Of a stretch of 54,865 nt of DNA, positions 4,027-22,635 are shown in pieces (position 1 is the first letter of the stretch; each line of letters begins with the position of its first letter). The notes beneath the pieces are model-generated. The model was given only the letters and a program-made list of their open reading frames with translations. It did not search any database and was not told where the DNA came from. Source of the DNA: an uncultured Candidatus Cloacimonadota bacterium (GTDB taxonomy: Bacteria > Cloacimonadota > Cloacimonadia > Cloacimonadales > TCS61); assembly GCA_964578365.1 (NCBI GenBank), contig CAZOCS010000002.1:1-54865 (forward strand), in the 5' to 3' direction. The position numbers were made by a program, and so were the translations under genes.

Positions 4027-4090
4027 TTCCATATATATGAGATTTTTAAGTTCATTAAGATATTGTGCAGATAAAAAAAATAAAGATGAT

Positions 4091-4170
4091 ATGAAATTTC
4101 TAATTGACAAGTAATTCTCAATTAGAAATTTCATCAACCATATTGTGAGGACTTAGGAATGAAATTTCAT
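4091..4170. promoter_or_regulatory. Palindromic operator-like sites built on ATGAAATTTCAT
   Basis: Perfect 17-bp inverted repeat ATGAAATTTCTAATTGA (4091-4107) / TCAATTAGAAATTTCAT (4118-4134) with a 10-nt spacer, enclosing a TTGACA hexamer (4106-4111). A third, self-complementary copy ATGAAATTTCAT lies at 4159-4170. Confidence 0.5.
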
Positions 4171-4300
4171 CCTTACATAAGGGGAAAAAATTGAATATCA
4201 GTCAGTCAATGAAACTGATTTATGATAGAAAATTGAATTTGTATTCAGATTGTGCAATAGCTATTCTGAATGTACTAATTGTTTAAAAAATAGATAAAAT

Positions 4301-4332
4301 GCAGTTTGTGAACATACAAACTGCTTTTTTTT
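4301..4332 (+). terminator. Rho-independent terminator-like hairpin 35 nt upstream of the second OFOR operon
   Basis: GCAGTTTGT (4301-4309), loop GAACAT, ACAAACTGC (4316-4324), then T8 (4325-4332). Confidence 0.7.
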
Positions 4333-4366
4333 ATCTTCGGATTTAATTATAGATGCAGGAGATTAT

Positions 4367-4642
4367 ATGAAATATTGGGAAAGACCTTTTGGTAAAGAGA
4401 AGCCTAAAACTGTTATTGGAGAAATTCATATTATCGATGACAGATGTAAAGGTTGTGGGTTTTGTATAGAATTCTGCCCAAATGGAGTATTAAAATTCTC
4501 TACAGGTTTCAATAAAAAAGGCTATCATCCACCAATTGTTGTTCAAATTGAGCAATGTGCTTTTGATGGTCTCTGTCAGTCTGTATGTCCGGATTCTGCA
4601 ATATTTATTGCACGACAGGAGGAAATGGATGAAAAAAAGTAA
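4367..4642 (+). CDS. 2-oxoacid:ferredoxin oxidoreductase set 2, delta subunit (2x[4Fe-4S] ferredoxin)
   Basis: 91 aa. CKGCGFCIEFCP plus a second, degenerate Cys motif (CAFDGLCQSVCP). AGGAGA RBS. Confidence 0.85.
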   Translation: MKYWERPFGKEKPKTVIGEIHIIDDRCKGCGFCIEFCPNGVLKFSTGFNKKGYHPPIVVQIEQCAFDGLCQSVCPDSAIFIARQEEMDEKK

Positions 4643-5789
4643 TTTTCATGGAGAATTTTTTATTCAAGGAAATATCGCCTGCGCAGAAGCTGCGCTTTCG
4701 GCAGGTTGCGGATTTTTTGGCGGATATCCTATAACTCCTGCTTCAGAAATAGCAGAAAGGATGGCACTTAGATTGCCGCAACTGGATGGAGTATTTATTC
4801 AATTTGAAGATGAGATAGCCTCTATGGCCTCCATACTCGGAGCGTCATGGGCAGGAGCGAAATCCATGACGGCAAGTTCAGGTCCGGGTATTTCATTAAT
4901 GTTAGAAAACATTGGTTTAGGAATGATGATGGAAGTACCTTGTGTGATAGTGAATGTGCAAAGAGGTTCACCATCTACAGGATTGCCAACAAGCTGGGGT
5001 CAATCTGATATTATGCAGGCCCGTTGGGGCTCACATGGTGATTACGGATCAATCTCTTTAGCTCCCAAATCACCTCAGGAGTATTACGATCTTACAGTTG
5101 TTGCATTCAATTTAGCAGAGAAATACAGACTTCCTGTTTTTGTAATGTCAGATGCAATAGTAGGACATATGACAGAAAAAGTACTTATACCACCTGTAGA
5201 AGAATTAGAAATTATTGAACGAAAATATACAAAGAAAAAACCGGGTAACTATAATCCTTATACAATTGAACCAGGGCAATGGGTGCCGGATTTTGCAAAA
5301 GCCGGAGACGGATATCTTTACCATTCAACAGGGCTCACACATGATGAACGCGGATATCCTGATATGAGTGAGAAATGTCATGTGAATCTTGTGAATAGAC
5401 TATTAGATAAAATTAATAAAAACGCAGATGACATTATCATGTTAGAAGAAAGAGATACTGAAGAAGCAGATGTGATCGTTATTTCATTTGGTATCACTTC
5501 CAGAACAGTGATCCCTGCTATAGTAGAAGCCAAAAAGAAAGGAATAAAGGTTGGCTATCTACGGTTAATAACAGTTTGGCCTTTCCCCGAAAAGCGCATT
5601 AGAGAACTCTCTAAGAAAATTGGTGGATTTGTTGTGCCGGAAATTAATATGGGACAAATAGTTTTGGAAGTAGAGCGTTGTTCCGGAGGTAATTGCAAAG
5701 TTATTTCACTTCCACATCCGGGAGGAGGCTTGCACAAAACCAAGGATGTTGTAAAAGCGATACAGGAGGCAGCTGATGCAAGACAATAG
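4629..5789 (+). CDS. 2-oxoacid:ferredoxin oxidoreductase set 2, alpha subunit
   Basis: 386 aa from ATG 4629 (AGGAGG 7 nt upstream). The 4536 start in the ORF track would overlap the delta gene by about 100 nt. FFGGYPITPASEI, SSGPGISLM and RGSPSTGLPT align along the whole length with the set 1 alpha subunit. Confidence 0.9.
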   Translation: MKKSNFHGEFFIQGNIACAEAALSAGCGFFGGYPITPASEIAERMALRLPQLDGVFIQFEDEIASMASILGASWAGAKSMTASSGPGISLMLENIGLGMMMEVPCVIVNVQRGSPSTGLPTSWGQSDIMQARWGSHGDYGSISLAPKSPQEYYDLTVVAFNLAEKYRLPVFVMSDAIVGHMTEKVLIPPVEELEIIERKYTKKKPGNYNPYTIEPGQWVPDFAKAGDGYLYHSTGLTHDERGYPDMSEKCHVNLVNRLLDKINKNADDIIMLEERDTEEADVIVISFGITSRTVIPAIVEAKKKGIKVGYLRLITVWPFPEKRIRELSKKIGGFVVPEINMGQIVLEVERCSGGNCKVISLPHPGGGLHKTKDVVKAIQEAADARQ

Positions 5790-6669
5790 TATAATCCCTG
5801 TACATCCTGAAGAAAATGATCTTAGAATGGATAGAATGCCTCACATCTGGTGTTCCGGTTGCGGATTAGGGATGATCGTTTCTGCATATATGAAAGGAGT
5901 GAAGCAAGCCGGGATCTCTGCCAAAAATGCTGCAGTTGTTTCCGGAATAGGATGTACCGGACGTGTAGCGGGTTATGTTAAGTTAGATTCATATCACACA
6001 ACTCACGGAAGAGCTATTCCCTTTGCAACAGGTTTAAAATTGGCCAATAGAAAGCTGAACGTGGCTGTAATTTCAGGTGATGGAGATCTTTTTGCAATTG
6101 GTGGAAACCATCTGATCCATGCTGCCCGAAGAAACGTAGATTTAAATGTAATATGCGTTAATAATTTCATTTACGGAATGACAGGTGGACAAAATGCACC
6201 AACTACTCCATTAGAAGCATACAGCTCTACAGCTCCATACGGAAACTATGAACAACCATTCAATCTTGTGGGAATGGCATCCGCTGCCGGAGCTTCTTAT
6301 GTTGCTCGTTGGACTTCAGCTCACACAAAAAGACTCACCGATTCAATTGCAGAGGGTATCAGCAAGCCTGGATTCAGCTTCATTGAAGTTGTATCACCTT
6401 GTCCAACTGTGTTCGCACGGAAAAATAAAGGTGGATCAGGACTGGATTTACTACAACAGTATTTGAAGAGATCAAAGATAGATCATACAGCTGATCCGAC
6501 TAAAATCCCATTAGACATGTCAAACGACATTATTTGCGGAGTGTTCCAAAATGAAGATAAGCCTACTTTCTGGGAAAATGTACAAAAAGGTACAGAAAGA
6601 AAAGTAAAAAAAACTTTAGAGTATAAAGTTACCAAAAGAAAAATGACCGGAAAGAGAGGTTTGAAATGA
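5776..6669 (+). CDS. 2-oxoacid:ferredoxin oxidoreductase set 2, beta subunit (TPP-binding)
   Basis: 297 aa. WCSGCGLG. VISGDGDLFAIGGNHLIHAARRNVDLNVICVNNFIYGMTGGQ. AGGAGG RBS. Overlaps the alpha stop. Confidence 0.9.
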   Translation: MQDNSIIPVHPEENDLRMDRMPHIWCSGCGLGMIVSAYMKGVKQAGISAKNAAVVSGIGCTGRVAGYVKLDSYHTTHGRAIPFATGLKLANRKLNVAVISGDGDLFAIGGNHLIHAARRNVDLNVICVNNFIYGMTGGQNAPTTPLEAYSSTAPYGNYEQPFNLVGMASAAGASYVARWTSAHTKRLTDSIAEGISKPGFSFIEVVSPCPTVFARKNKGGSGLDLLQQYLKRSKIDHTADPTKIPLDMSNDIICGVFQNEDKPTFWENVQKGTERKVKKTLEYKVTKRKMTGKRGLK

Positions 6670-7202
6670 GCAATAGAAATATTAAAATATCAGGTTTTGG
6701 TGGGCAGGGCGTTATTTTATCATCTTATATAACGGGTAAAGCTGCATCAATTTTTGATGGAATGAATGCTTCTATGACACAAGCCTACGGACCTGAAGCC
6801 AGGGGGGGAGCATGTAGTGCTCAGGTAGTAATTTCTTCTGATGAAGTTGATTATCCATTGGTTGATTCTGCAGATGTTTTGATCGCTCTTTCTCAAGAAG
6901 GTTATGATAAGTTTCTTTCGATTCTCAAGCCTGATGGAATTCTATGTTATGATGAAGATCTGGTAAAGGTGCTCCAATCTCACAATGGGATCATTGCAAA
7001 GAAGATTCCTGCGACCCGTATAGCCGAAGATCTTGGAAAAAAGATCGTTGCAAATATTGTAATGCTTGGTTTTGCGGTTGCTCAAGCAAATATCACTTCT
7101 TTTGAAGGAATGAGAGAAGCTATCTCGGAGTCCGTTCCCAAAAAATTCTTAGATTTGAATTTAAAAGCCTATCAGACGGGCTACGATCATAAAGGAGATT
7201 GA
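6666..7202 (+). CDS. 2-oxoacid:ferredoxin oxidoreductase set 2, gamma subunit
   Basis: 178 aa. ISGFGGQGVILSS and AYGPEARGG motifs. Overlaps the beta stop (ATGA). Ends in TGA 1 nt before the hdrC start. Confidence 0.9.
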   Translation: MSNRNIKISGFGGQGVILSSYITGKAASIFDGMNASMTQAYGPEARGGACSAQVVISSDEVDYPLVDSADVLIALSQEGYDKFLSILKPDGILCYDEDLVKVLQSHNGIIAKKIPATRIAEDLGKKIVANIVMLGFAVAQANITSFEGMREAISESVPKKFLDLNLKAYQTGYDHKGD

Positions 7203-7203
7203 T

Positions 7204-7611
7204 ATGTTTATAGAAATTTCCAAAAACGATATTAATAATGAATTAGTAAGAAAAATTCATGATCTTTCCGGACAGAACGTGTTTGATTGCTACCAGTGCG
7301 GAAATTGCTCTTCCGGCTGTCCTGTTGTAGAATACATGGATATCACCCCTAACCAGGTATTACGGCTTTCCCAATATGGAGCTGTCGACAGCATTCTGAA
7401 TAGTGAGACAATCTGGGTTTGTTCAACTTGTCTGCAATGTTCTACTCGCTGTCCTAAAGGAATAGATGTTGCAAGAGTGATGGAAGCCTTAAGAACAGTT
7501 AATTTGCGAGATGGAATTGGTGTGGTTGATCCTAAACATCTGGAAAATGAAAACGAAGAAGAATTGCCACCCATACTTTTGGTGTGTGCAATGCGAAAAC
7601 TTACGGGTTGA
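7204..7611 (+). CDS. hdrC: Heterodisulfide reductase subunit C-like 2x[4Fe-4S] protein
   Basis: 135 aa. CYQCGNCSSGCP and CSTCLQCSTRCP. Sits next to hdrB and hdrA. Confidence 0.85.
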   Translation: MFIEISKNDINNELVRKIHDLSGQNVFDCYQCGNCSSGCPVVEYMDITPNQVLRLSQYGAVDSILNSETIWVCSTCLQCSTRCPKGIDVARVMEALRTVNLRDGIGVVDPKHLENENEEELPPILLVCAMRKLTG

Positions 7612-7627
7612 TCTTGGGAGGAAATGA

Positions 7628-8506
7628 ATGAAATTACCATATTACCCCGGTTGTACACTTAAAGCGAATGCTAAGCATTTTGAGGATTCAGCTCAGGCAG
7701 CAATGGAAAAACTAGATTTTCAATTGGAAGAAATGAAGGATTGGGTTTGTTGCGGAACGGTATTCTCAATGACCAGTGATGACCTGATGCTGCAGCTCTC
7801 TTCTATTCGAAATCTATTACGAGCAGAAAAACAAGACCTAAAAGAATTAGTTACACTTTGCAGTATGTGCTACAATACATTAAAGCGTTCAAAAGATTTT
7901 GTCGAAGGAGATCCTGATAATCTGGAAAAGGTGAACAATTTTATGTATATGGAAGAGGCGGACTACAAAGGTCAGGTAGAAATATATCATCTTCTAACAA
8001 TTTTACGAGATCGTATAAAATTTGAAAACATAAGATCACAGGTAACAAATCCACTAAAATCACTCAAGCTAGGTGCATATTATGGTTGTTTACTGGTTCG
8101 TCCGCAAGAATATGCAATTGATGATTTTGAAGCACCTACAATTATGGAAGATCTGGTAGAAAATCTGGGAGCTGAATCCATAGAATTCCAGTTCAAATTG
8201 GAATGTTGTGGAGCTTATCAGACACTTACAAAAAAAGATATCAGTGTGAAAAGAGCATATGAGATTCTTGATTCTGCACAAAAAGCTGACTGTGAAGCGA
8301 TAATTACAAGTTGTCCCCTATGTGCTTATAATTTAGATTTCATGCAAAAAGAGATCGAAAAAGAATATGTGGAATTTAAGAAAATTCCAATCTTTTATTT
8401 TACTGAGCTTATGGCAATTGCGCTGGGAGCTGGCTGGAATAGCGACTGGGCTAAATTGCATGATGTAGATCCTGAACCATTATTACGAGAAAAGCAATTG
8501 ATCTAA
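7628..8506 (+). CDS. hdrB: Heterodisulfide reductase subunit B-like protein (two CCG domains)
   Basis: 292 aa. Two CCG-domain signatures: YPGC...WVCCG...CSMC and YYGC...ECCGA...CPLC. Confidence 0.85.
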   Translation: MKLPYYPGCTLKANAKHFEDSAQAAMEKLDFQLEEMKDWVCCGTVFSMTSDDLMLQLSSIRNLLRAEKQDLKELVTLCSMCYNTLKRSKDFVEGDPDNLEKVNNFMYMEEADYKGQVEIYHLLTILRDRIKFENIRSQVTNPLKSLKLGAYYGCLLVRPQEYAIDDFEAPTIMEDLVENLGAESIEFQFKLECCGAYQTLTKKDISVKRAYEILDSAQKADCEAIITSCPLCAYNLDFMQKEIEKEYVEFKKIPIFYFTELMAIALGAGWNSDWAKLHDVDPEPLLREKQLI

Positions 8507-8515
8507 GAGGATACA

Positions 8516-10462
8516 ATGAAAAGAATCGGAGTATTTATTTGTCATTGCGGTGTAAATATTGCCGGCACCGTTGATGTTGAACAACTTACAGAAAAACTAG
8601 CTGATTATCCGGGAGTTGCCCATATCGAGAATTACATGTTCATGTGTTCTGATCCAGGGCAAAACATTATTAAAAAAGCAATAAAGGATCATAAATTGGA
8701 TAGTGTTGTGGTGGCAGCCTGTTCACCAACTCTACATGAATCCACTTTCCAAAATGCTGTTTCTGAAGTTGACATTAACAAATATCAACTGGAAATTGGA
8801 AATATTCGTGAGCAGTGTAGCTGGGTTCATAGTAACAAAGAAGAGGGAACCAGAAAAGCAGAACTTATCATCAAAACTGCAGTGGAAAAAGCAAAACTGA
8901 ATCAATCGCTTGAACCGGTTTCAGCTCCGCTCACAAAACGAGTTCTTATTATTGGTGGTGGAATTGCAGGAATTCAAGCTGCTTTGGATATTGCAGATGG
9001 TGGCTACGAAGTTATCATGGTTGAAAAGAAACCATCAGTTGGTGGTCACATGATCCAACTCTCCGAAACTTTCCCAACTCTAGACTGTTCGCAATGTATT
9101 CTAACTCCCAAAATGGTCCAGCTTGGAAAGCACAAAAACATTAAACTTTATGTAAATAGTGAAATTGATGAGATCAGCGGATTCATGGGGAATTTCAAAG
9201 CAACCATCAAACGTAAACCGCAATATGTAGATCCTGAAATTTGCACTCTTTGTGATGATTGCACAAATGCTTGTCCTATTGTTGTTCCAAGTGAATACGA
9301 TGAAGGACTGGCTTACCGCAAAGCTATCTATGTTCCATTCCCGCAGGCTATACCCGCTTCCTATACAATAGACACAGAAAACTGTTTGGGATTTGATCCG
9401 ATTGCCTGTGGTGAATGCAAAAAAGCCTGTCTTGCAGAAGCAATTGATTATGATAAAAAGCCTGATACATTCGTTGAAGATATTGGTGCTGTGATCGTAG
9501 CTACCGGTTATGATCTGTATCCGGTGGAAAATATTCCTGAATATGGTTATGGAAAATATCCTGATGTGTTGAATGGATTACAGTTTGAGAGGATACTCTC
9601 AGCAACCGGACCAACAGGTGGTGAAATGTTGCGTCCCTCTGATGGGAAAATTCCTAAAGAGATCGTATTCATACAGTGTTCCGGTTCACGTGATCCCGAA
9701 CGACATAATCCATATTGTTCTAAGATATGCTGTATGTACACCTTAAAACATGCTAAACTTTACAAACATAAAGTTCACGACGGTCAACCTTACATTTTCT
9801 ACATAGATATTCGTTCAGGTGGAAAGAGATATGAGGAGTTTATCCAGGAAGGTGTTTCGGAAGACGGCATTGTTTACATACGTGGTAAAGTGGCCAAGAT
9901 ATATAAAAAGGGTGACAAAATGATAGTGCACGGTATGGATACACTTACCGGGCACAAAGTAAAGATCGAAGCAGATATGGTTGTTCTGGCTCAATCTATA
10001 GTTCCCAGTGAGGGAGCTGATAAACTTTTCAAAACGCTAAAACTGGGTACTGATAGTGATGGTTTCTTGAGCGAAGCACATCCAAAGTTAAGACCATTGG
10101 AGAGTTTACAATCCGGTTTCTATCTGGCAGGAGCAGGCCAGGGGCCAAAAGACATTCCCGAAGCTGTTTCTCAAGCTTCCGGAGCAGCTGCCAAGGTTTT
10201 AGCTTTGATGTCTAATGATGAAGTGATGCACGAACCGATCATAGCAACTGTTGATGAAAATATGTGCTCCGGATGCAGTATCTGCATCGGGACATGTCCT
10301 TATGGAGCGAGAGAATTAGATGAAGACAAGATAGCGATTGTGAACGAGATTTTGTGTGAAGGTTGTGGTGCCTGCATTAGTGCGTGTCCATCGGGTGCTT
10401 CTCAACAAAAGAACTTGACCGATGATCAGATCATGAACATGATAAATGTAATAATAAATTAA
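8516..10462 (+). CDS. hdrA: Heterodisulfide reductase subunit A-like FAD/FeS flavoprotein (bifurcating-type)
   Basis: 648 aa. N-terminal Cys cluster (FICHCGVNI). FAD fold VLIIGGGIAGIQAALDIADGGYEVIMVEKKPSVGGHM. Ferredoxin motifs CTLCDDCTNACP, CGECKKAC, CSGCSICIGTCP, CEGCGACISACP. Confidence 0.9.
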   Translation: MKRIGVFICHCGVNIAGTVDVEQLTEKLADYPGVAHIENYMFMCSDPGQNIIKKAIKDHKLDSVVVAACSPTLHESTFQNAVSEVDINKYQLEIGNIREQCSWVHSNKEEGTRKAELIIKTAVEKAKLNQSLEPVSAPLTKRVLIIGGGIAGIQAALDIADGGYEVIMVEKKPSVGGHMIQLSETFPTLDCSQCILTPKMVQLGKHKNIKLYVNSEIDEISGFMGNFKATIKRKPQYVDPEICTLCDDCTNACPIVVPSEYDEGLAYRKAIYVPFPQAIPASYTIDTENCLGFDPIACGECKKACLAEAIDYDKKPDTFVEDIGAVIVATGYDLYPVENIPEYGYGKYPDVLNGLQFERILSATGPTGGEMLRPSDGKIPKEIVFIQCSGSRDPERHNPYCSKICCMYTLKHAKLYKHKVHDGQPYIFYIDIRSGGKRYEEFIQEGVSEDGIVYIRGKVAKIYKKGDKMIVHGMDTLTGHKVKIEADMVVLAQSIVPSEGADKLFKTLKLGTDSDGFLSEAHPKLRPLESLQSGFYLAGAGQGPKDIPEAVSQASGAAAKVLALMSNDEVMHEPIIATVDENMCSGCSICIGTCPYGARELDEDKIAIVNEILCEGCGACISACPSGASQQKNLTDDQIMNMINVIIN

Positions 10463-10475
10463 TAAAGGTAGTAAA

Positions 10476-10901
10476 ATGAGAAAATTTGAACCAAAGATTG
10501 TTTGTTTTCTTTGTAAATGGTGTACATATGCAGGTGCAGATCTAGCGGGAACATCGCGGCAGCAATATCCACCCAATGGTGTGGTCATAAAAACACTTTG
10601 TTCTTCCAGGATAGATCCGGAACACATTTTATATGCCTTCCAACAAGGAAGTGATGGTGTTTTCATCGGGGGTTGTCATCCTGGTGATTGCCATTATCAA
10701 TCAGGAAATTACAAAACAAAAAGAAGAGTATTACTTCTACAAAGTATGATCAAGCAATTGGGTCTGGATTCAAAAAGGCTTCGGCTGGAATGGATTTCTG
10801 CCAGTGAAGGAAACAAATTTGCTAGTACAATGAAAGAATTCACTGAAACAATTCGCAATTTAGGACCCATTCCCAAATTGGATAATAGAGGAGGAGAATA
10901 G
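10476..10901 (+). CDS. mvhD: MvhD/FlpD-type hydrogenase-to-Hdr electron-transfer subunit
   Basis: 141 aa. KIVCFLCKWCTYAGADLAG...IKTLCSSRIDPEHILYAFQQGSDGVFIGGCHPGDCHY. Confidence 0.9.
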   Translation: MRKFEPKIVCFLCKWCTYAGADLAGTSRQQYPPNGVVIKTLCSSRIDPEHILYAFQQGSDGVFIGGCHPGDCHYQSGNYKTKRRVLLLQSMIKQLGLDSKRLRLEWISASEGNKFASTMKEFTETIRNLGPIPKLDNRGGE

Positions 10902-10904
10902 CAC

Positions 10905-11591
10905 ATGAGTGACAAAAGAGAAATGATAGACATCTATATTGGAGGAGAATTATTTCAGGTTCCTGAAGGCTCAACCATAATTTCCGCGATGGAATATGCG
11001 GGTTTCCAGCTAAAAAAGGGAGTTGGATGTCGTGAGGGTTATTGTGGTGCCTGCGCCACGGTTTATAGAGAAAAAGGAGATTATAAATTGAAGGGCGGTT
11101 TAGCTTGCCAAACAGTTGTAACAGATGGAATGGCCGTTGCTATGATCCCATTTGTTCCTGCTGAAAAACCAACTTATGATCTAGAAGAGCTCGAAGCTGA
11201 TGTGAGCACTTTCACCAAATTGTTCCCTACAGTATTCCGCTGTGTTTCCTGCAATACTTGCACAAAAGCTTGTCCACAGGAAATTCAAGTGATGGATTAT
11301 ATTCAAGCGATAATTCGTGGAGATATCGAACGCGCTGCTAACCTGTCTTTCGATTGTATTCGATGTGGACTCTGTGCTCTGCGCTGTCCAGCTGAGATCG
11401 TGCAATATAACAATGCCATCCTGGCTCGTCGATTGTATGCCAAATATTTGGCTCCTAGAAGCCCTGAATTGGAAGCCAGATTGGAAGAGTTGAAGGATAA
11501 AAAGTATGATAAAGAAATTATAGAATTGAAAAAAATGCCCAAAGATAAACTTTCCGAGAAGTATTACAGTCGGGAAATTAAAATTTCTTAA
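10905..11591 (+). CDS. Iron-sulfur subunit: N-terminal [2Fe-2S] ferredoxin fold plus two complete [4Fe-4S] motifs (FrdB/SdhB-like or HdrC-like)
   Basis: 228 aa. CREGYCGAC...C (Cx4Cx2C then a distal Cys). CVSCNTCTKACP and CIRCGLCALRCP. AGGAGGAG RBS. Immediately followed by the flavoprotein gene. Confidence 0.75.
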   Translation: MSDKREMIDIYIGGELFQVPEGSTIISAMEYAGFQLKKGVGCREGYCGACATVYREKGDYKLKGGLACQTVVTDGMAVAMIPFVPAEKPTYDLEELEADVSTFTKLFPTVFRCVSCNTCTKACPQEIQVMDYIQAIIRGDIERAANLSFDCIRCGLCALRCPAEIVQYNNAILARRLYAKYLAPRSPELEARLEELKDKKYDKEIIELKKMPKDKLSEKYYSREIKIS

Positions 11592-11604
11592 GCAGGAGAG
11601 AAAA

Positions 11605-13275: not shown

Positions 13276-13290
13276 TATTTGGAGGGTTTG

Positions 13291-14298
13291 ATGGCAAAAC
13301 CTAAAGTTGCCTTTTATTGGTGTGCATCTTGTGGTGGCTGTGAAGAAGCGATCGTAGATCTGAACGAAGATATTTTAAAAGTGGCAGATCTGGTTAATAT
13401 TGTTTTCTGGCCATGCGCCATGGATTTTAAATATGAGGATGTGCGCAAAATGAAAGATGGAGAGATCACTGTCTCTTTCATTAATGGAGCAATTCGTACC
13501 GAAGAAAACGAAGAAATGGCAAAATTATTACGCAAAAAATCGCAGTTTGTTATTTCTTTTGGTGCCTGCTCTCACATGGGTGGAATTCCCGGATTAGGTA
13601 ATTTCTGGGATAAGGAAAGCATCTTCGAATCTTCTTATGGAGAATCTTGCCCATCTGTATTGAATCCTGATGGGATTGTACCTCTGGTTAGATCAAAAGT
13701 ATCTGAAGGTGAGCTTACTCTACCGGAATTTCATGATACTGTAAGAAGTCTGGATCAAGTAGTAGATGTAGATTATTATCTACCCGGTTGCTCTCCAGAA
13801 CCATACCTTACTATGAATGCAATTGTCAAATTGCTGTCAGGTGATCTTCCTGCCAAAGGAACAGTGTTGGCTCCGGCAAAATCAATGTGTGATATCTGCA
13901 GCAGAAGTGAAACAAAACCTGAAAAACTCAGTATTAAAGAGATCAAACGCGTAGCAACAGTACAACCAGATCCAGAAGAATGTTTCCTGGCTCAGGGCAT
14001 TATTTGTATGGGACCGGTTACCAGGTTTGGCTGCAAGGAAGAAGGAGATGGTCGCTGCATCAGTGCCAATATGCCATGCCGTGGTTGTTATGGACCACCC
14101 CCAGGCGTTAAAGATGTCGGTGCCAAAATGGTTTCGGCTCTGGCTTCCATTGTTGGATTGGAAGGTGAAGAAGAAATGAGTGATAATGATGTGCAAAGCC
14201 TGATGGATCAAATTCCCGATCCAGCAGGAACATTCTATCGTTTTTCCCTGCCAATTTCAATGATGAGAAGAAAACGTATGACAAGTGAGGAAAACTAA
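13291..14298 (+). CDS. mvhG: [NiFe] hydrogenase small subunit, cytoplasmic Mvh-type
   Basis: 335 aa from ATG 13291 (GGAGGG at 13281-13286). FYWCASCGGCEE proximal-cluster motif. C-terminal Cys-rich region (CDICS, CMGPVTRFGC, CISANMPCRGC). No twin-arginine signal. Confidence 0.85.
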   Translation: MAKPKVAFYWCASCGGCEEAIVDLNEDILKVADLVNIVFWPCAMDFKYEDVRKMKDGEITVSFINGAIRTEENEEMAKLLRKKSQFVISFGACSHMGGIPGLGNFWDKESIFESSYGESCPSVLNPDGIVPLVRSKVSEGELTLPEFHDTVRSLDQVVDVDYYLPGCSPEPYLTMNAIVKLLSGDLPAKGTVLAPAKSMCDICSRSETKPEKLSIKEIKRVATVQPDPEECFLAQGIICMGPVTRFGCKEEGDGRCISANMPCRGCYGPPPGVKDVGAKMVSALASIVGLEGEEEMSDNDVQSLMDQIPDPAGTFYRFSLPISMMRRKRMTSEEN

Positions 14299-14299
14299 G

Positions 14300-15763
14300 A
14301 TGTCAAAAAAAATAACTATAGATCCGATAACTAGATTGGAAGGTCATGGTAAAGTTGAGATATTCCTGGATGAGAAGGGGAATGCTACAAATGCATATTT
14401 ACAGGTTCCCGAACTTAAAGGATTTGAACAATTTTGCATAGGCAGACCTGTAGAAGAACTTCCTAGAATCACTCCGCGAATTTGCGGGGTTTGTCCTACT
14501 ACGCATCATATGGCTGCTACAAAAGCAGTTGATGCGGTTTATAATGTTGTTCCTACAGATACTGCTATCAAAGTACGCCGTGTGATTTATGATGCGTTCA
14601 TGATGGAAGATCATCTTCTGCATTTTTTCTTTTTAGGTGGACCTGATTTTGTGGTTGGTCCTGATGCACCTCCCGGGGAAAGAAACATACTTGGAGTTGT
14701 TGGAAAAGTTGGTGTTGAAATTGGAAAAAAGGTTATCGATATTCGTCGTAGATTACGGTCTGTTATCACAACATTGAGCGGAAGAGTAATTCATCCTGTG
14801 AGCGGACTTCCCGGTGGAGTTTCCAAAGGTATAACAGAAGAACAGAGAGTAGAATTTCTACAAATTGCTAAAGATAGTGTGGAATTTGCCAAGTTTACTT
14901 TGAAAGTTTTTGAAGATATTGTACTTAAAAATAAAACTTATGTAGATCTAATTGTAGGTGATATCTACAAACATAAAACTTATTACATGGGAATGGTGGA
15001 TGAGAACAATCATCCCGATTTTTATGATGGTAAGATCCGGGTTGTTGATCCCGATGGAAAAGAAATAGCCAAGTTTGCTCCTAAAGACTACCTGGATCAT
15101 ATTGTAGAACGTGTAGAACCGTGGAGCTATATAAAATTTCCATATTTAAAAAACGTAGGTTGGAAAGGTTTTGTGGACGGGAAAGACAGCGGTGTTTACC
15201 GAGTTGCACCCTTAGCAAGATTGAATGTAGCAGATGGAATGTCTACACCTCTAGCTCAAGCAGAATTTGAAAAAATGTTCTCAATTCTGGGTGGGAAACC
15301 TGCCCATAATACACTGGCTTTTCACTGGGCCAGATTAATAGAAGTAATGTTTGCTGCCGAACATATGGTTAAACTATTGAAAGACAAATCCATAACCAGC
15401 CCGGATATTCGTCGTATTCCTACAGAAACACCAAAAGAAGGAGTGGGAATTGTTGAAGCTCCCAGAGGTACTCTCATTCATCATTACAAAACAGATGAAC
15501 AGGGAATGGTTACGGGTGTGAATCTGATCGTGGCAACTGTAGGCAACTCTGCAGCTATGTCTATGTCTATAGCCAAAGCTGCTCAGAATCTTATAAAAAA
15601 TGGAGAAGTTAACGATAGTATTTTAAATATGGTAGAAATGGCCTTCCGTCCTTATGATCCTTGTTTGGCTTGTGCCACTCATTCACTTCCAGGTAAAATG
15701 CCACTGATGGTGAACGTATATGACAAGGACAAAAATAAACTTAAAACGATTACAAGGGATTAA
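14300..15763 (+). CDS. mvhA: [NiFe] hydrogenase large subunit, Mvh-type (group 3-like)
   Basis: 487 aa from ATG 14300. ITRLEGHG. N-terminal Ni-binding RICGVCPTTHH. C-terminal DPCLACATH followed by a 26-aa extension, the expected endopeptidase substrate. Confidence 0.9.
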   Translation: MSKKITIDPITRLEGHGKVEIFLDEKGNATNAYLQVPELKGFEQFCIGRPVEELPRITPRICGVCPTTHHMAATKAVDAVYNVVPTDTAIKVRRVIYDAFMMEDHLLHFFFLGGPDFVVGPDAPPGERNILGVVGKVGVEIGKKVIDIRRRLRSVITTLSGRVIHPVSGLPGGVSKGITEEQRVEFLQIAKDSVEFAKFTLKVFEDIVLKNKTYVDLIVGDIYKHKTYYMGMVDENNHPDFYDGKIRVVDPDGKEIAKFAPKDYLDHIVERVEPWSYIKFPYLKNVGWKGFVDGKDSGVYRVAPLARLNVADGMSTPLAQAEFEKMFSILGGKPAHNTLAFHWARLIEVMFAAEHMVKLLKDKSITSPDIRRIPTETPKEGVGIVEAPRGTLIHHYKTDEQGMVTGVNLIVATVGNSAAMSMSIAKAAQNLIKNGEVNDSILNMVEMAFRPYDPCLACATHSLPGKMPLMVNVYDKDKNKLKTITRD

Positions 15764-15809
15764 TAAAATTTGCGATGAAAGCAAAAAAGCAGGAAATTTA
15801 GAGAAATTG

Positions 15810-16262
15810 ATGAGTACTTTAGTTCTTGGTTTAGGAAACACTATTTTGTCTGATGATGGAGTAGGAATTCATATAGCATTTGAGATAAAAAAGAAGTGTG
15901 ATAATATCGATGTATTGGAAGCCAGTGCCGCCGGTTTTCGCGTGATCGACGAAATAATAGGTTATGATAAGCTCATCCTGATAGATTCTATCAAAACAGG
16001 TAAAGTTGAATCAGGAGGATTGCACAGATTCACTTTTGATGAATTCAGCAGAACAATGCATCATACGTCTCCACATGACATTAGCTTGTTCGAAGCATTT
16101 GATATAATGAAAAAAGAAAATGCTGATCTACCTACAAATATTAAAGTTTATGCTGTTGAAGTGGAAGACACATCCACTTTTTCAGAAAATTGCACACTCA
16201 AAGTTGCAGAGGTTATTCCCAAAGTAGCAGAGATCGTAATAATGGAAAATAATTTAACATAG
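15810..16262 (+). CDS. Hydrogenase maturation endopeptidase (HycI/FrhD family)
   Basis: 150 aa from ATG 15810. LVLGLGNTILSDDGVGIH start typical of the family. Lies directly downstream of the large subunit. Confidence 0.8.
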   Translation: MSTLVLGLGNTILSDDGVGIHIAFEIKKKCDNIDVLEASAAGFRVIDEIIGYDKLILIDSIKTGKVESGGLHRFTFDEFSRTMHHTSPHDISLFEAFDIMKKENADLPTNIKVYAVEVEDTSTFSENCTLKVAEVIPKVAEIVIMENNLT

Positions 16263-16275
16263 ATCCGGGGGTTCA

Positions 16276-17445
16276 ATGAACATTCATGAATATCAGGCGA
16301 AACAAATTTTTGCCGATCAGAATATACCAATTCAAGATGGAATAATGATAGAAGATGCTGCGGAGGCAAGAAATGCAGCTAATAAAATAGGTGGTAATTT
16401 CTGGGTTGTAAAAGCACAGATCCATGCTGGTGGACGAGGCAAGGGTGGCGGAGTAAAATTTGCTAAAACTTTGGACGAAGTAGAAAAATATGCTTCTGAT
16501 ATTTTAGGAATGACGCTAATTACACATCAAACCGGTCCTGCAGGAAGATTAGTTAAGAAGATATTTATCGCAGGTGGCGTGGATATAAAAAAAGAATATT
16601 ACCTGGGAATAGTTTTAGATAGAACATCTGAAATGCCGGTTATGATGGCTTCCACTGAAGGTGGAATGGAAATCGAAAAAGTAGCATCCGAAACACCAGA
16701 GAAGATCATCAAAGTAGGAATCGATCCGCTAATTGGTTTCAGAGCTTTCCATGCCGGAAAGCTGTCTTCCGGATTAAACCTTTCCAAAGAACAAATGAAG
16801 CACTTTGGTAAATTTGCAAAAGCTTTGTATGATGTATATTCAAATAATGATGCCAGCCTTATAGAAATAAATCCGCTGGTCCTTACTGCAGAAGATACTT
16901 TTTTAGCTTTGGATGCTAAAATGGGATTCGATGATAACGCTTTGTATCGTCATGCTGATCTTAGAGAAATGCTTGATCTGGACGAAGAAGAACCTACTGA
17001 ACTGGAAGCTGGTAAATACGGATTAAGCTATGTGAAACTGGATGGTAATGTTGGCTGCATGGTAAATGGTGCCGGATTGGCAATGTCTACCATGGACATC
17101 ATTAAATTGAATGGTGGTGATCCTGCAAACTTTTTAGATGTTGGTGGTGTAGCTAGCGCAGAAACAGTTGCAAAGGGTTTTGAAATTATATTGCAAGATA
17201 AAAATGTTAAGGCGATCTTTGTAAACATCTTCGGTGGAATCGTACGATGTGATCGTATTGCCAATGGTATTTTGGAAGCGACTAAAAAAATAGATGTAAA
17301 GGTTCCGCTTATTGTACGTTTGAACGGTACAAATTCTGAAGAAGCAGCAGAAATTCTCAAAGCAGCAAATATTGAGAATATAATTACAGCTAAAGACCTG
17401 GCCGATGGAGCTCAAAAAGCTGTTAATGCTGCAAGGGGTGTGTAA
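16276..17445 (+). CDS. sucC: Succinyl-CoA synthetase beta subunit
   Basis: 389 aa. [42 protein letters not shown]. Confidence 0.95.
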
Positions 17446-17447
17446 GC

Positions 17448-18317
17448 ATGAGTATATTAGTAAATAAAGATTCAAAAGTTATAGTGCAGGGTTTCACAGG
17501 AAAGGAAGGAACTTTCCATGCTCAGCAATGTATCGAATATGGTACTAATATTGTAGGTGGGGTTACACCGGGCAAAGGTGGGCAAATCCATCTGGGAAAA
17601 CCCGTTTTTAATTCTGTTCAAGATGCAATAGAAGAAGTTAAGGCAGATGTAAGCATTATTTTTGTACCACCAGCTTTCTCTGCAGACGCAGTGATGGAAG
17701 CAGCTGAGGCAGGCATTAAAGTGATCGTTTGTATTACAGAAGGCATCCCTGTTTCAGATATGATGATAGCAAAAAAATATGTTAAAAATAAGGGAGCAAT
17801 TTTAATTGGTCCTAATTGTCCGGGAATTATTAGTGCAGAGGAAACCAAAATTGGTATTATGCCGGGAGTAGTATTTAAAAAAGGGGATGTTGGAGTTATA
17901 TCAAAATCTGGAACCCTAACATACGAAGCAGCAAATCAGGTTGTTGAAGCAGGTTTAGGAATAACTACAGCTATTGGAATTGGCGGTGATCCAATTATTG
18001 GAACAACATATATCGATCTTTTAGAACTTTTTGAAAATGATTCTGAAACAAAAGCAATTGTTATGATCGGAGAAATTGGTGGAGATCTGGAGATACAAGC
18101 TGCTAAATATATAAGAAAGAATATTACGAAACCTGTTGTAGCATTTATTGCAGGACAAACCGCTCCTAAGGGAAAACGAATGGGCCACGCCGGTGCGATA
18201 ATTGCCGGCAGCAAAGGAACAGCCAAAGAGAAAATGGATGCTTTGGAAGCAGCTGATGTTCATGTTGTTGCTTCACCTGCTGATATTGGCAAGAAAGTAA
18301 AAGAGGTTCTTGGGTAA
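17448..18317 (+). CDS. sucD: Succinyl-CoA synthetase alpha subunit
   Basis: 289 aa. [22 protein letters not shown], phosphohistidine loop MGHAGAII. Confidence 0.95.
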
Positions 18318-18410
18318 TTTGTCACTATCCTACCTGTTGCTTGAAGTGTGAAAGCAGGATTGAAGGATAATAAAAGAATAAGAAATTTAAATAATTAATG
18401 AGGTGATCAA

Positions 18411-19256
18411 ATGCGAGAAGTGAATGTGAAAGATCTGATCCCAGTTGTAAAGAAACTTTGCATCGATGCCAATTATTATATGGGTGAAGATGTAATAGCC
18501 AAGATTAAAGAACTCAAAATGAAGGAAGAATCTCCAACAGCTAAAAGTGTTTTGGATATTTTATTAGAAAATTACGAATTAGCAGATAAGGAGCAAATGC
18601 CGATATGTCAGGATACAGGTATTGCTGTTGTCTTTGTTGAATTGGGACAAGATGTTCATTTGGTTGGCGGAGACTTTACCGAAACAATAAATGAAGGTGT
18701 TCGGCAAGGTTATCAAGATGGTTATTTACGTAAATCTATGGTTGCTGATCCAATAATAGATCGAATTAATACAAAAGATAATACACCGGCAATTATTTAT
18801 ACTGAGATCGTGCCTGGTGATAAGATCAAGATAACAATTGCTCCCAAAGGCGGTGGCAGTGAAAACATGAGCGAAGTGAAAATGATGAAAGCAGCAGACG
18901 GCATCAAAGGTGTTATCGATTTTGTTGTAGATCGCATTAGTAGGTCCGGAGGAAATCCATGTCCACCGATAGTTGTAGGAGTTGGTTTAGGTGGAAATTT
19001 TGAACAAAGTGCACTTCTTGCCAAGAAATCACTACTGCGTTCACTCACAGAAAGAAATCCAGATCCCAAATGGGCAAAGGTTGAAGAAGAAATATTAGAA
19101 AAGATCAATGATCTGGGGATCGGTCCGCAAGGACTAGGTGGCAGAACAACAGCCCTAGCTGTTCATATTCTTTCCAAACCGTGCCATATTGCTTCTATGC
19201 CGGTTGCGGTAAATGTTCAATGTCATGCTGCTCGGCATAAAAGTGCTGTGATATAA
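18411..19256 (+). CDS. Class I (Fe-S) fumarate hydratase, alpha (N-terminal domain) subunit
   Basis: 281 aa. MPICQDTGIAVVFVELG, PKGGGSENMS, GPQGLGG. Confidence 0.85.
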   Translation: MREVNVKDLIPVVKKLCIDANYYMGEDVIAKIKELKMKEESPTAKSVLDILLENYELADKEQMPICQDTGIAVVFVELGQDVHLVGGDFTETINEGVRQGYQDGYLRKSMVADPIIDRINTKDNTPAIIYTEIVPGDKIKITIAPKGGGSENMSEVKMMKAADGIKGVIDFVVDRISRSGGNPCPPIVVGVGLGGNFEQSALLAKKSLLRSLTERNPDPKWAKVEEEILEKINDLGIGPQGLGGRTTALAVHILSKPCHIASMPVAVNVQCHAARHKSAVI

Positions 19257-19266
19257 AGGAGAAAAC

Positions 19267-19815
19267 ATGGAAATATATTTAACGACACCCTTAAAAACTG
19301 AAGATCTGGAAAAACTGAAGATCGGAGATCAGGTTTATATTACCGGAACAGTTTACACAGGAAGAGATGCTGCTCATAAAAGACTTGTGGAACTTCTAGA
19401 AAAAGGAGAGCAGCTTCCCTTTGATGCAGAAGGACAAATCATCTATTATGTAGGACCTGCACCTGCTCCTCCCGGAAAACCAATCGGTTCTGCCGGACCC
19501 ACAACAAGCTATAGAATGGATCCCTATGCACCAGCTCTGCTAGATGCAGGTATGAAGGCCATGATCGGTAAAGGACCACGAGATCAATCTGTGATAGATT
19601 CGATGATAAAAAACAAAGCAGTTTACTTAGCCGCGGTTGGCGGAGCAGCAGTTGTTGTCGCCAAATCTATTAAAGAATCAAAAGTGATAGCATACGAAGA
19701 TCTGGGACCGGAAGCTATCCGTGAAATGAAAGTAGAGAACTTCCCATGCGTAGTAGCAAATGATGTAAATGGGAATGATATCTACAAAGCCGGTGTTGAA
19801 AAGTATAAAAGATAA
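19267..19815 (+). CDS. Class I (Fe-S) fumarate hydratase, beta (C-terminal domain) subunit
   Basis: 182 aa. ITGTVYTGRDAAHKRL, GPTTSYRMD, MIGKGPR. Confidence 0.85.
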   Translation: MEIYLTTPLKTEDLEKLKIGDQVYITGTVYTGRDAAHKRLVELLEKGEQLPFDAEGQIIYYVGPAPAPPGKPIGSAGPTTSYRMDPYAPALLDAGMKAMIGKGPRDQSVIDSMIKNKAVYLAAVGGAAVVVAKSIKESKVIAYEDLGPEAIREMKVENFPCVVANDVNGNDIYKAGVEKYKR

Positions 19816-19838
19816 AAATAATAAGGAGATTATGTAGA

Positions 19839-21293
19839 ATGGAAAAATTAAAGATCGATCTCACAAATTTAAATGAAGTTTTTCCTGATGATTTTTCGCA
19901 GGAACAAATTGCTAAAGGTAAAACGTTGTTTCTAAAAAAAATGTCGGAAGATGCTCACAAATTTTATGGTGGAAAGATCCAGACAGTGCCAAAAGCAGGA
20001 GTGTTTGGCTTTAACTGGTTTAACGTTTGGTACACACCGGGAGTTTCTAAAATATCCACAACGATACGTGATGATAACGACACAAGCTTTGATCTTTCCA
20101 ACCGTGGGAATCTGGTAGCTGTAGTAAGTGATTCCACACGTGTTTTGGGTGACGGTGATTGTACACCTCCTGGCGGACTTGGTGTGATGGAAGGAAAAGC
20201 TTTTTTGATGAAATACCTAGGCGGTGTAGATGCAGTAGCACTCTGTGTAGATAGTAAAGATGAAAATGGTATCAATGATCCTCAAAAAATAATTGATTTT
20301 GTGAAAATGTGCCAACACAGTTTTGGTGCAATTAATTTGGAAGATATCTCCCAACCAAACTGCTATAAAGTTTTAGACACACTTCGAGAAGAATGCGATA
20401 TCCCAGTTTGGCATGATGATGCACAAGGAACGGCATGTGTTACTTTGGCTGGTCTCATCAATGCGCTGAAGCTGGCAGAGAAAAAAATTGAAGATGTAAA
20501 GATCGCTATGTTGGGAGCAGGAGCTTCTAATACAACAATTGCCAGACTGATAATCGCTGCTGGTGGAGATCCTAAAAAAATGTATGTTTTTGATTCTAAA
20601 GGTGGATTACATACAGGTCGATCTGATATTGAAGCGGATAAACGTTTCTACAGAAAATGGGAACTTTGCGAAAGTACGAACCCAGAGAAGATCGATACAT
20701 TTGCCGATGCTTGTGTGGGAGCAGATGTGATGATAGCTCTTTCCAAACCGGGACCAGATACAGTTAAACCAGAATGGATAAAAACAATGGCAGATAAATC
20801 TATTGTATTTACATGTGCTAATCCTGTTCCGGAAATATATCCGTATGCAGCCAAAGAAGCCGGAGCTTTTATTGTTGCTACCGGTCGTGGGGATTTCCCA
20901 AATCAAGTAAATAATTCAATTGGATTTCCTGGTATACTAAAAGGTGCTTTAATGGTTCGCGCCAGAAAGGTAACCGATAATATGGCAATTGCCGCAGCAT
21001 ATTCTCTGGCAGATTATGCCGAGAAACGTGGAATCGATCCGGAGAACATAGTTCCAACAATGGATGAAGCCGGAGTATTTGCTGTAGAAGCTGCGGATGT
21101 TGCAATGCAGGCGATCAAAGAAGGTGTGGCTCGCGTAGAAATGACTTGGGATGAAGCATTCCAAAAAGCAAAAACTGACATTGAATACTCTCGAGGTATG
21201 ACCAAATTGATTATGGATAAAGGTTATATTGATTCACCTCCTGAAGACATGCTGCAAGAAGCAATTTCATGGGCTATAGATCAAGTTAAATAA
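19839..21293 (+). CDS. NAD(P)-dependent malic enzyme (short form, no PTA domain)
   Basis: 484 aa. VAVVSDSTRVLGDGD, GVMEGKAFLMK, FGAINLEDISQPNC, GAGASNTTIARL. Confidence 0.85.
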   Translation: MEKLKIDLTNLNEVFPDDFSQEQIAKGKTLFLKKMSEDAHKFYGGKIQTVPKAGVFGFNWFNVWYTPGVSKISTTIRDDNDTSFDLSNRGNLVAVVSDSTRVLGDGDCTPPGGLGVMEGKAFLMKYLGGVDAVALCVDSKDENGINDPQKIIDFVKMCQHSFGAINLEDISQPNCYKVLDTLREECDIPVWHDDAQGTACVTLAGLINALKLAEKKIEDVKIAMLGAGASNTTIARLIIAAGGDPKKMYVFDSKGGLHTGRSDIEADKRFYRKWELCESTNPEKIDTFADACVGADVMIALSKPGPDTVKPEWIKTMADKSIVFTCANPVPEIYPYAAKEAGAFIVATGRGDFPNQVNNSIGFPGILKGALMVRARKVTDNMAIAAAYSLADYAEKRGIDPENIVPTMDEAGVFAVEAADVAMQAIKEGVARVEMTWDEAFQKAKTDIEYSRGMTKLIMDKGYIDSPPEDMLQEAISWAIDQVK

Positions 21294-21307: not shown

Positions 21308-21344
21308 AAATAGGGGCGATTTATAAATCGCCCCTATTTTATTT
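21308..21344. terminator. Bidirectional terminator hairpin between convergent genes
   Basis: ATAGGGGCGA (21310-21319) pairs with TCGCCCCTAT (21328-21337). T-rich on both sides (TTTTATTT downstream on the + strand). Confidence 0.75.
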
Positions 21345-22381: not shown

Positions 22382-22635
22382 TTTTCCTCCTTATTTTGTT
22401 GTAACATTAGATGCAACAATTGTTCCATATAGATAAGCTTTTTATTTTGTTTAGAAATTAATTATATAATTCCTATTATTTAAACAACAATAGATAAATA
22501 TTGTATAAAATTCAAAAAATTATCATACTCAATAAGACAGTTGGTAAATTGAGACTCAAAGAAATATGTACTCTTTTTTCTTTACAATAGCAGCGCAAAT
22601 TCACTGTTTGATTCATAATAAAAAGAGAGGTGTTT

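Follow-up and report, generated by a model that had tools for sequence, protein, structure and literature searches.

The window examined here (contig CAZOCS010000002.1, the whole stretch of DNA analysed, 54,865 nt) carries a block of 18 co-directional, tightly packed + strand genes at 4367–21293, which the open reading frame (ORF) listing and profile searches against Pfam and NCBIfam identified in the order korDABG, hdrC-hdrB-hdrA-mvhD, an FrdB-like iron-sulfur (FeS) gene, an FrdA-like flavoprotein gene, mvhG-mvhA-protease, sucCD, fumAB and malic enzyme (Table 1). From these sequences we consider it moderately probable that the block encodes an H2-driven, quinone-independent cytoplasmic fumarate reductase, which is wired to an Mvh-Hdr module and bifurcates electrons to fumarate and ferredoxin (Fd). 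The reaction would be 2 H2 + fumarate + Fd(ox) -> succinate + Fd(red), carried out by a putative complex in which electron pairs from H2 would pass via MvhAG and MvhD to the flavin of HdrA and be bifurcated there, with the high-potential electron running directly, without a thiol, from HdrC via HdrB, the FeS subunit and flavin adenine dinucleotide (FAD) to fumarate, and the low-potential electron going uphill to ferredoxin. Reduced ferredoxin would be used by the co-encoded 2-oxoacid:ferredoxin oxidoreductase (OFOR) for the reductive carboxylation of succinyl-CoA, with any leftover available for Rnf, while malic enzyme, fumarase and succinyl-CoA synthetase would provide the carbon steps from pyruvate to succinyl-CoA. 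The operon would then suffice by itself for an H2-driven reductive branch that leads from pyruvate/malate to 2-oxoglutarate and forms part of a reductive tricarboxylic acid (rTCA) cycle. The observations behind this proposal are the gene content of the block, its domain and cofactor motifs, its conserved synteny and its interchangeable input modules.

The strongest evidence that the Frd-like pair works with Hdr is comparative, since the gene set is kept across differing gene orders and with swappable input heads. A scan of one genome per species gave 80 flavoprotein loci (59–92% identity), and the 18 proteins of the window were mapped on 82 loci, comprising these 80 and two more, with everything within 10 kb counted as neighbourhood. 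The hosts represent about ten phyla altogether, and include Cloacimonadota, Neomarinimicrobiota, Fidelibacterota, Delongbacteria, Stahlbacteria, Aminicenantes/Acidobacteria and Myxococcales, as well as Gallionella, Sideroxydans, Sulfuricella, Hydrogenophilales and other proteobacterial lineages. The FeS gene was located near the flavoprotein gene in 75/82 loci, any hdr gene in 62/82, kor genes in 32/82 and hydrogenase genes in 20/82, and an hdr gene was present in 27 of the 34 loci with flanks of at least 6 kb to either side. The gene directly upstream of the FeS gene was hdrB in 12 loci and mvhD in 10. The tie of the Frd-like pair to Hdr and MvhD, which an earlier note had proposed from this DNA alone, is thus found in several gene orders and phyla; the arrangement is far beyond chance, and its gene set is met again in related genomes.

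Five architectures were distinguished. Several Cloacimonadota, including the window, have korDABG-hdrCBA-mvhD-FeS-Flav-mvhGA-protease (Flav being the flavoprotein gene), a cassette also found in the surveyed loci L007, L016, L028, L030, L042 and L043. L016, from a Cloacimonadota metagenome-assembled genome (MAG), has the entire gene order of the block at 76–96% protein identity. Neomarinimicrobiota, Fidelibacterota and Stahlbacteria have mvhGA-hdrCBA-mvhD-(protease)-FeS-Flav-mae, so that the Mvh, Hdr and Frd-like set occurs in two orders. The third architecture has FlxDCBA as its input module, arranged as FeS-Flav-(rubrerythrin)-hdrCB-korDABG-hdrA-flxDCBA in Proteobacteria (Gallionella among them) and as hdrB-korDABG-hdrA-flxDCBA-FeS-Flav in Aminicenantes; it comprises about 20 proteobacterial loci plus the Aminicenantes-type loci, with Flx verified by Pfam in L060 and L061 and assigned by identical synteny in the remainder. 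In the fourth (L005, L010 and others) hdrC-hdrB-FeS-Flav comes after an HdrA-MvhD fusion, and hydrogenase and Flx are both lacking, and in the fifth, seen in 7/34 long loci, FeS-Flav stands with no hdr nearby. The input head is therefore interchangeable (Mvh, FlxABCD or the HdrA-MvhD fusion), while Hdr, the FeS protein and the flavoprotein stay.

Some details of these loci were recorded separately. The HdrA-MvhD fusion of L005 (5604–7985) is 793 aa long, and the variant was also detected in L010, L018, L020 and L022; its hosts are Delongbacteria, unclassified MAGs and further Cloacimonadota, and its neighbourhood is free of hydrogenase and Flx genes. Lone FeS-flavoprotein pairs, often together with malic enzyme, occur in L001, L011, L013, L014, L035 and L063, which have no hdr within 10 kb and include long contigs of 0.7–4.4 Mb. 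In L061 (11734–12267), and at the same place in other proteobacterial Flx-type loci, hdrC is separated from the flavoprotein gene by a rubrerythrin/ferritin-like gene, which the published Endoriftia cluster also has there; the product of this gene may shield oxygen-sensitive enzymes. The mvhA-protease and fumA-fumB spacings of L016, the closest relative (10140–12556 and 15092–16456; flavoprotein 92% identical), are ~0.5–0.9 kb larger than in the window, which suggests small insertions there.

In NCBIfam, the FeS protein, HdrC and HdrB match one stretch of TfrB after another (profile positions 21–86, 118–227 and 263–474, respectively), the first of these being the only part of TfrB that the FeS subunit matches and the second, the middle part, being matched by HdrC in addition to its own families. 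As these are consecutive parts of a single TfrB polypeptide, the three proteins are probably linked in function (a Rosetta-stone relationship).

The genes of the block lie close together. Junctions within the block are overlaps or gaps of at most ~47 nt, down to 3 nt between mvhD and the FeS gene and 3–15 nt between the flavoprotein gene and mvhG (alternative ATG start at 13291), and the sole exception, of 93 nt (18318–18410, before the fumarase genes), contains no hairpin with a T-tract. Strong hairpins are confined to the two edges of the block. The upstream one marks the block boundary, as either the terminator of the preceding unit or a leader structure, and the downstream one is a terminator in both directions, which also serves the convergent gene at 21371–22243. 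Internal terminator-like matches are weak (stems of 5–8 bp) and not in excess (13 observed versus 13.5 ± 3.8 expected from shuffling), a promoter-consensus scan was uninformative on internal promoters (71 matches versus 59.9 ± 8.4 expected), and an Rfam scan of the window gave zero matches, and hence no RNA element or rRNA as a taxonomic or regulatory clue. The nearest homologues of the flavoprotein (79–92% identity) are from Cloacimonadota MAGs, and the host is a Cloacimonadota bacterium. We read the block as one operon, real and widely conserved. The identities, strand and gaps given for the cluster in the earlier note agree with ours, as does its failure to spot an internal hairpin with a T-tract; it had counted 19 genes where we count 18.

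Table 1. Coordinates of the genes of the block and of the hairpins at its edges.
Feature	Position	Strand	Basis or remark
Hairpin, 10-bp stem + T8	4301..4332	+	35 nt upstream of korD
korD, OFOR delta, 2x[4Fe-4S] ferredoxin domain	4367..4642	+	Fer4, Fer4_7
korA, OFOR alpha	4536..5789	+	POR_N, PFOR_II; NF006412 547 bits, cut-off 411
korB, OFOR beta, thiamine pyrophosphate-binding	5776..6669	+	Pfam, NCBIfam
korG, OFOR gamma	6666..7202	+	Pfam, NCBIfam
hdrC, 2x[4Fe-4S], heterodisulfide-reductase type	7204..7611	+	Pfam Fer4; HdrC TIGR03290, QmoC
hdrB, CCG-domain subunit	7628..8506	+	CCG x2 (Pfam)
hdrA, FAD/FeS subunit	8516..10462	+	Full-length alignment to solved HdrA
mvhD, [2Fe-2S] adaptor between hydrogenase and HdrA	10476..10901	+	FlpD 177 bits; VhuD
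FrdB/SdhB-like FeS subunit, 228 aa	10905..11591	+	Alignment with E. coli FrdB and SdhB
FrdA/SdhA-like flavoprotein, 556 aa	11605..13275	+	FAD_binding_2 (Pfam)
mvhG, [NiFe] small subunit	13279..14298	+	Oxidored_q6; VhuG 185 bits
mvhA, [NiFe] large subunit	14285..15763	+	VhuA 432 bits, best NCBIfam family
Hydrogenase maturation endopeptidase	15720..16262	+	HycI; TIGR00072 95 bits, above cut-off
sucC, ADP-forming succinate-CoA ligase beta	16276..17445	+	NF001913 570 bits, cut-off 370
sucD, succinate-CoA ligase alpha	17448..18317	+	Pfam
Class I (Fe-S) fumarate hydratase alpha	18411..19256	+	NF004885 417 bits, cut-off 276
Class I fumarate hydratase beta	19267..19815	+	Fumerase_C
NAD(P)-dependent malic enzyme, malate to/from pyruvate + CO2	19839..21293	+	malic, Malic_M
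14-bp palindromic GC-rich hairpin	21308..21339		15 nt past the malic enzyme stop

Every subunit is intact and has its counterpart in methanogen Mvh/Hdr or in Frd/Sdh as its nearest match. HdrA is the bifurcating flavoprotein of the methanogen complexes, and residues 3–648 of the HdrA encoded here align to solved methanogen HdrA (8rvu_a, 711 bits; 5odc_A, 697 bits), with the characteristic thioredoxin reductase-like FAD domain and N-terminal, inserted and C-terminal FeS domains. In the alignment to 8rvu_b, HdrB retains all ten Cys residues of the two CX(n)CCX(n)CXXC motifs, and it is equally similar to methanogen HdrB (CoB_CoM_SS_B, 170 bits) and to SdhE (MFR_anch_SdhE, 162 bits), the CCG subunit of type-E fumarate reductases; it is the only CCG protein in the operon. 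The HdrA, HdrB and HdrC of the block score under the NCBIfam equivalog cut-offs set for their methanogen namesakes. The hydrogenase large subunit has MvhA as its best solved chain (5odc_F, 410 bits), and carries the RxCGxC and DPCxxCxxH motifs as well as a C-terminal tail for proteolytic maturation. By these features the hydrogenase is classed as Mvh/group 3c type, as had been supposed earlier, and the block has the sequence features looked for in an Mvh-HdrABC system, namely HdrA, HdrB/HdrC, MvhD, MvhA/MvhG-like subunits and the protease.

The OFOR of the block is probably specific for 2-oxoglutarate, the best NCBIfam match of KorB being the beta subunit of 2-oxoglutarate:Fd oxidoreductase, at a score under the cut-off of that family. 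The mechanical ORF of korA opens at a TTG codon (4536) and overlaps korD; its true start is probably near 4650, as family alignments begin at residue 40.

For the flavoprotein, an alignment was made with the authentic FrdA, SdhA and NadB of E. coli (MG1655 record). All residues of fumarate/succinate catalysis are kept (H327, T343, E344, R347, R368, H440 and R474; H232, T244, E245, R248, R287, H355 and R390 in the E. coli FrdA reference), and these seven are invariant across 24 family members. Asn134 occupies the position of the His to which FAD is covalently bound (FrdA His44/SdhA His45), and the FAD is predicted to be non-covalent; the column of NadB Glu121, which we take to be a functionally telling residue of NadB, holds a Gly. 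The flavoprotein is without the C-terminal helical domain of ~130 aa, and its N-terminus carries 95 extra aa that are conserved and specific to the family. This extension was found in 274 clusters among 1.84 billion representative proteins; among the matches listed, many of them short, it lies at or near the protein's own N-terminus, with the exception of one long repetitive protein, and no informative fusion partner emerged from this collection. Placed against TfrA by NCBIfam score ranking, the flavoprotein has TfrA as its best family (NF004900, 317 bits against a cut-off of 718, profile positions 6–406 of 546), nadB (TIGR00551) gave 264 bits against a cut-off of 453, and the curated cut-off of every named NCBIfam family lies above its score. 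Solved Frd/Sdh flavoproteins rank first in both sequence and fold search, with NadB ranking 49th by fold, and an AlphaFold2 monomer model of moderate quality (predicted local distance difference test score 67.7; template modelling score ~0.5 to Frd/Sdh) confirmed the fold class. On the strength of its residues, scores and fold ranking we assign the flavoprotein to the fumarate/succinate enzymes and not to the L-aspartate oxidases, the choice made in the earlier note as well.

The FeS subunit has the [2Fe-2S] ligands C42/C47/C50/C68 and two complete CxxCxxCxxxCP motifs, and since the second motif is complete, it is expected to hold a [4Fe-4S] cluster in place of the quinone-proximal [3Fe-4S] cluster. 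It has an extra C-terminal tail of ~65 aa, and no CCG domain was detected by Pfam or in the FrdB/SdhB alignment. Non-covalent FAD combined with a [4Fe-4S] cluster would be expected of a low-potential, fumarate-reducing, non-quinone enzyme. The requirement of covalent flavin for succinate oxidation is known from E. coli FrdA His44 mutants, and characterised Frd/Sdh enzymes with non-covalent FAD have lost succinate oxidation and carry out fumarate reduction only.

Three known enzymes were tried as identities for the pair and rejected: L-aspartate oxidase, by the nadB score below cut-off, the Gly at Glu121 and the presence of an FeS partner in 75/82 loci; quinol:fumarate reductase/succinate:quinone reductase, by Asn134, the [4Fe-4S] instead of [3Fe-4S] cluster and the lack of a membrane-anchor gene in the operon; and bona fide TfrAB, by the TfrA score of 317/718 bits, the missing C-terminal domain and the lack of CCG in the FeS subunit. 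The label thiol:fumarate reductase (TFR) appears imprecise for this pair, in which the defining features of both TfrA and TfrB are absent.

Direct wiring of Hdr to the fumarate reductase is favoured over transfer by a thiol shuttle because there is one CCG protein, no CCG in the FeS subunit and no carrier protein in the operon. With a shuttle, Mvh-HdrABC would bifurcate to ferredoxin and an unnamed bacterial disulfide (of either a low-molecular-weight thiol or a protein like DsrC), and the fumarate reductase would re-oxidise the thiol, as in the methanogen combination of Mvh-Hdr with TfrAB. We regard this as unlikely, even with the cysteines of both non-cubane cluster sites kept in HdrB, TfrA as the closest named family of the flavoprotein, and published models that invoke thiols or DsrC. 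The thiol-oxidising half of TfrB is missing, as HdrB is the single CCG protein and the FeS subunit has no such domain, and a thiol made by Hdr would therefore have no encoded re-oxidation site. A DsrC-like or thiol-biosynthesis gene was not found in the operon with Pfam, and coenzyme M (CoM) and coenzyme B (CoB) are not known from these bacteria.

Alternatively, the two modules might share no more than their location, with the FeS-flavoprotein pair acting as an autonomous soluble fumarate reductase dependent on ferredoxin or another carrier, Mvh-Hdr being a separate enzyme that passes electrons from H2 to ferredoxin and an unnamed acceptor, and the operon being shared as both serve the same reductive pathway. 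Stand-alone pairs do exist, as in the lone-pair loci listed above, and the flavoprotein of the window is nearer to that of the Hdr-less loci L003/L033 (84% identity) than to those of other Cloacimonadota with the Mvh cassette (65–69%). However, hdrB and mvhD are repeatedly found tightly joined to the FeS gene, the pair in the window is set between mvhD and mvhG with gaps of a few nucleotides, and the neighbourhood is conserved across phyla despite its reshuffled order; mere co-location would also leave unexplained an Hdr without an encoded high-potential acceptor. We consider it rather improbable.

The direction of the reaction was assessed by computation. The forward reaction is exergonic by 12–39 kJ per 2 H2 at 1–10 Pa H2, and is feasible down to ~0.004–0.08 Pa H2; this direction, one of two raised in the earlier note, is the best reading and matches published proposals. 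The other, a confurcation in which succinate and the Fd(red) from 2-oxoglutarate oxidation would yield H2 via Mvh, would provide a membrane-independent succinate oxidation in syntrophic propionate, C4 or glutamate degradation. Its stoichiometry fits, as 2-oxoglutarate:Fd oxidoreductase (OGOR) gives exactly the Fd(red) required, Cloacimonadota have been discussed as syntrophic propionate oxidisers, and a remnant of a methylmalonyl-CoA epimerase gene is present upstream of the block. We nevertheless disfavour it as distinctly improbable, because of the non-covalent FAD (Asn at the His44/His45 position), the occurrence of the same module within published rTCA clusters of autotrophs, and the very low H2 threshold: with succinate equal to fumarate it requires H2 below 0.01–0.08 Pa, and to become feasible below ~2.5 Pa H2 it needs a 1000:1 ratio of succinate to fumarate together with ferredoxin at -500 mV. 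The epimerase is moreover decayed, so that a methylmalonyl-CoA link has not been maintained at the locus. Finally, another substrate for the flavoprotein (L-aspartate, as in NadB, or another enoate or dicarboxylate) is very improbable, since against its scores under every named cut-off, missing C-terminal domain and unique N-terminal extension stand the seven invariant catalytic residues, the Gly in the Glu121 column, an FrdB-like partner subunit that NadB does not have, the fold ranking of Frd/Sdh over NadB, and the adjoining genes for fumarase and succinyl-CoA synthetase.

Several observations weigh against the proposed H2-driven, bifurcating fumarate reductase. The disulfide-reducing site of HdrB is fully intact in its cysteines, which leaves room for a thiol/disulfide intermediate, and the NCBIfam models for 2-oxoglutarate score below their cut-offs on the OFOR of the block. 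The FeS-flavoprotein pair is found with no hdr nearby in the 7/34 long-flank loci, and L003/L033 have no hdr in the flank available; from such Hdr-less loci it follows that the pair can work with other partners. No ATP-citrate lyase was seen within the ~55-kb window, the rest of which resembles that of an amino-acid fermenter. In Endoriftia, tfrAB did not share the expression pattern of its cluster (Mitchell et al. 2024, PMC11636981).

All six subunit types of the methanogen MvhADG-HdrABC complex (5ODC, 8RVU) are present in the window and align over their full length. The window differs in coming from a bacterium, in having no methanogenesis context and in the FrdAB-like pair between mvhD and mvhG, and with this insertion and a non-methanogen host the acceptor is probably fumarate and not the heterodisulfide of CoM and CoB (CoM-S-S-CoB). 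Miura et al. 2008 reportedly described a five-subunit fumarate reductase, soluble and dependent on NADH, from the rTCA cycle of Hydrogenobacter thermophilus, said to consist of a cytoplasmic FrdAB with extra FeS/Hdr-like and flavoprotein subunits; its donor is NADH, no hydrogenase is said to be attached, and bifurcation is not reported. The TfrAB of Methanothermobacter (Heim et al. 1998) is likewise soluble and quinone-independent, with an FrdA-like subunit and FeS clusters, and its TfrB amounts to FeS-like, HdrC-like and HdrB-like parts fused in one chain, which are separate genes in the window; the window proteins differ by scoring far below the cut-offs, by the 95-aa extension and by lacking the C-terminal domain as well as CCG in the FeS subunit.

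The gene arrangement as such is already on record, and the window adds nothing new in kind. For Ca. Celaenobacter, a member of the same phylum with the same gene set, Williams et al. 2021 (PMC8542988, Front Microbiol) described a cluster of TFR, OGOR, fumarate hydratase, succinyl-CoA synthetase, group 3c Mvh and Hdr, read it as a functional link in an H2-driven rTCA cycle, and drew the mechanism with a thiol shuttle. Their description is at the genome level only, with a CoM-S-S-CoB-type heterodisulfide between Hdr and TFR, and it reports ATP-citrate lyase elsewhere in the genome, the window here covering 55 kb. Rubin-Blum et al. 2019 (PMC6315080) described an rTCA cluster flxABCD-hdrABC-korABCD-tfrAB in Ca. 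Endoriftia and Thioflavicoccus mobilis, and proposed direct bifurcation to OGOR and fumarate reductase for this Flx version, the cluster of which was found to be co-expressed (Mitchell et al. 2024). Its FeS protein and flavoprotein are of the same family, with their genes interleaved among hdrCB, korDABG and hdrA-mvhD(flxD); the donor would be NADH via FlxABC there and H2 via MvhAG in the window, both being hypotheses. The window shares the co-directional, interleaved order and the Flx or Mvh input that mark Hdr-linked Kor/Tfr-like rTCA clusters. In a 2026 survey (PMC13147460) the bifurcating fumarate reductase was still a suggestion, and a 2025 review of Cloacimonadota placed MvhADG-HdrABC in 'Clade B' and drew no link to fumarate reduction. 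The earlier note had not recognised the arrangement; it has been published (PMC8542988, with the Flx idea in PMC6315080), although the note was right that no such complex has been characterised biochemically. What we add is the survey of about ten phyla, the swappable inputs, the imprecision of the 'TFR' label, the cofactor features and the argument for a thiol-free route.

Upstream of the block lie the 3′ end of uvrB (116–745) and, directly after it, a second complete OFOR set (delta, alpha, beta and gamma; 907–3812, + strand), a uvrB-OFOR context that is also present in L003 and L005. The 555-nt spacer between this set and korD (3813–4366) holds the methylmalonyl-CoA epimerase remnant noted above, a 3′ fragment (3854–4010, + strand; profile positions 81–129 of 129) with one frameshift, in a T-run; after repair of this frameshift it matched TIGR03081 with E=1e-10, which bears out its earlier recognition as a relic. 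An intact orthologue of the epimerase (134 aa, 62% identity) is located in L003 (8570–8974) at the same position, between the OFOR gamma and FeS genes, which suggests that the Hdr/Kor cassette arrived beside an older OFOR-mce-FeS-Flav-sucCD-fumAB arrangement. Downstream of the block, two secreted proteins (21371–22243, - strand; 22630–24330, + strand), one of them with an Omp28 domain, have C-terminal sorting domains of the type IX secretion system (Por_Secre_tail, FlgD_ig), a lineage marker of the Fibrobacteres-Chlorobi-Bacteroidetes (FCB) group and Cloacimonadota. A - strand run of amino-acid catabolism genes (~36673–47147) encodes a saccharopine-dehydrogenase-like protein, an amino-acid permease/SLC12, a thiolase, a class III aminotransferase and an AlaDh_PNT_N protein, together with two ORFs of ~230 aa and one of 535 aa without a Pfam match; it may be a lysine-type fermentation cluster, fitting an amino-acid-fermenting lifestyle.

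Acceptors of the heterodisulfide type are the only ones with which Hdr is known to have been shown to carry out flavin-based bifurcation. The potential of fumarate is ~ +33 mV. It is possible, and we put this forward tentatively, that the encoded proteins form a single soluble super-complex with thiol-free bifurcation, in which fumarate would be the high-potential acceptor and the non-cubane clusters of HdrB would serve as a relay to the FrdAB-like module and not as a disulfide site, and that this would be one form of a modular family in about ten phyla with Mvh (H2), Flx (NADH) or HdrA-MvhD fusion heads. Such a super-complex would represent a membrane- and quinone-independent 'fumarate respiration' in fermenters like this Cloacimonadota bacterium, with energy conserved via Fd(red) and Rnf. 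The comparative data turn the published hypothesis into testable predictions, and the cluster family names fumarate as a candidate acceptor for many bacterial HdrABC-MvhADG and Flx-Hdr systems. Fumarate as acceptor would permit H2-driven ferredoxin reduction even at sub-pascal H2, and would explain both fumarate reduction and the supply of ferredoxin to OGOR in organisms that use the rTCA cycle or its reductive branch without low-potential quinones.

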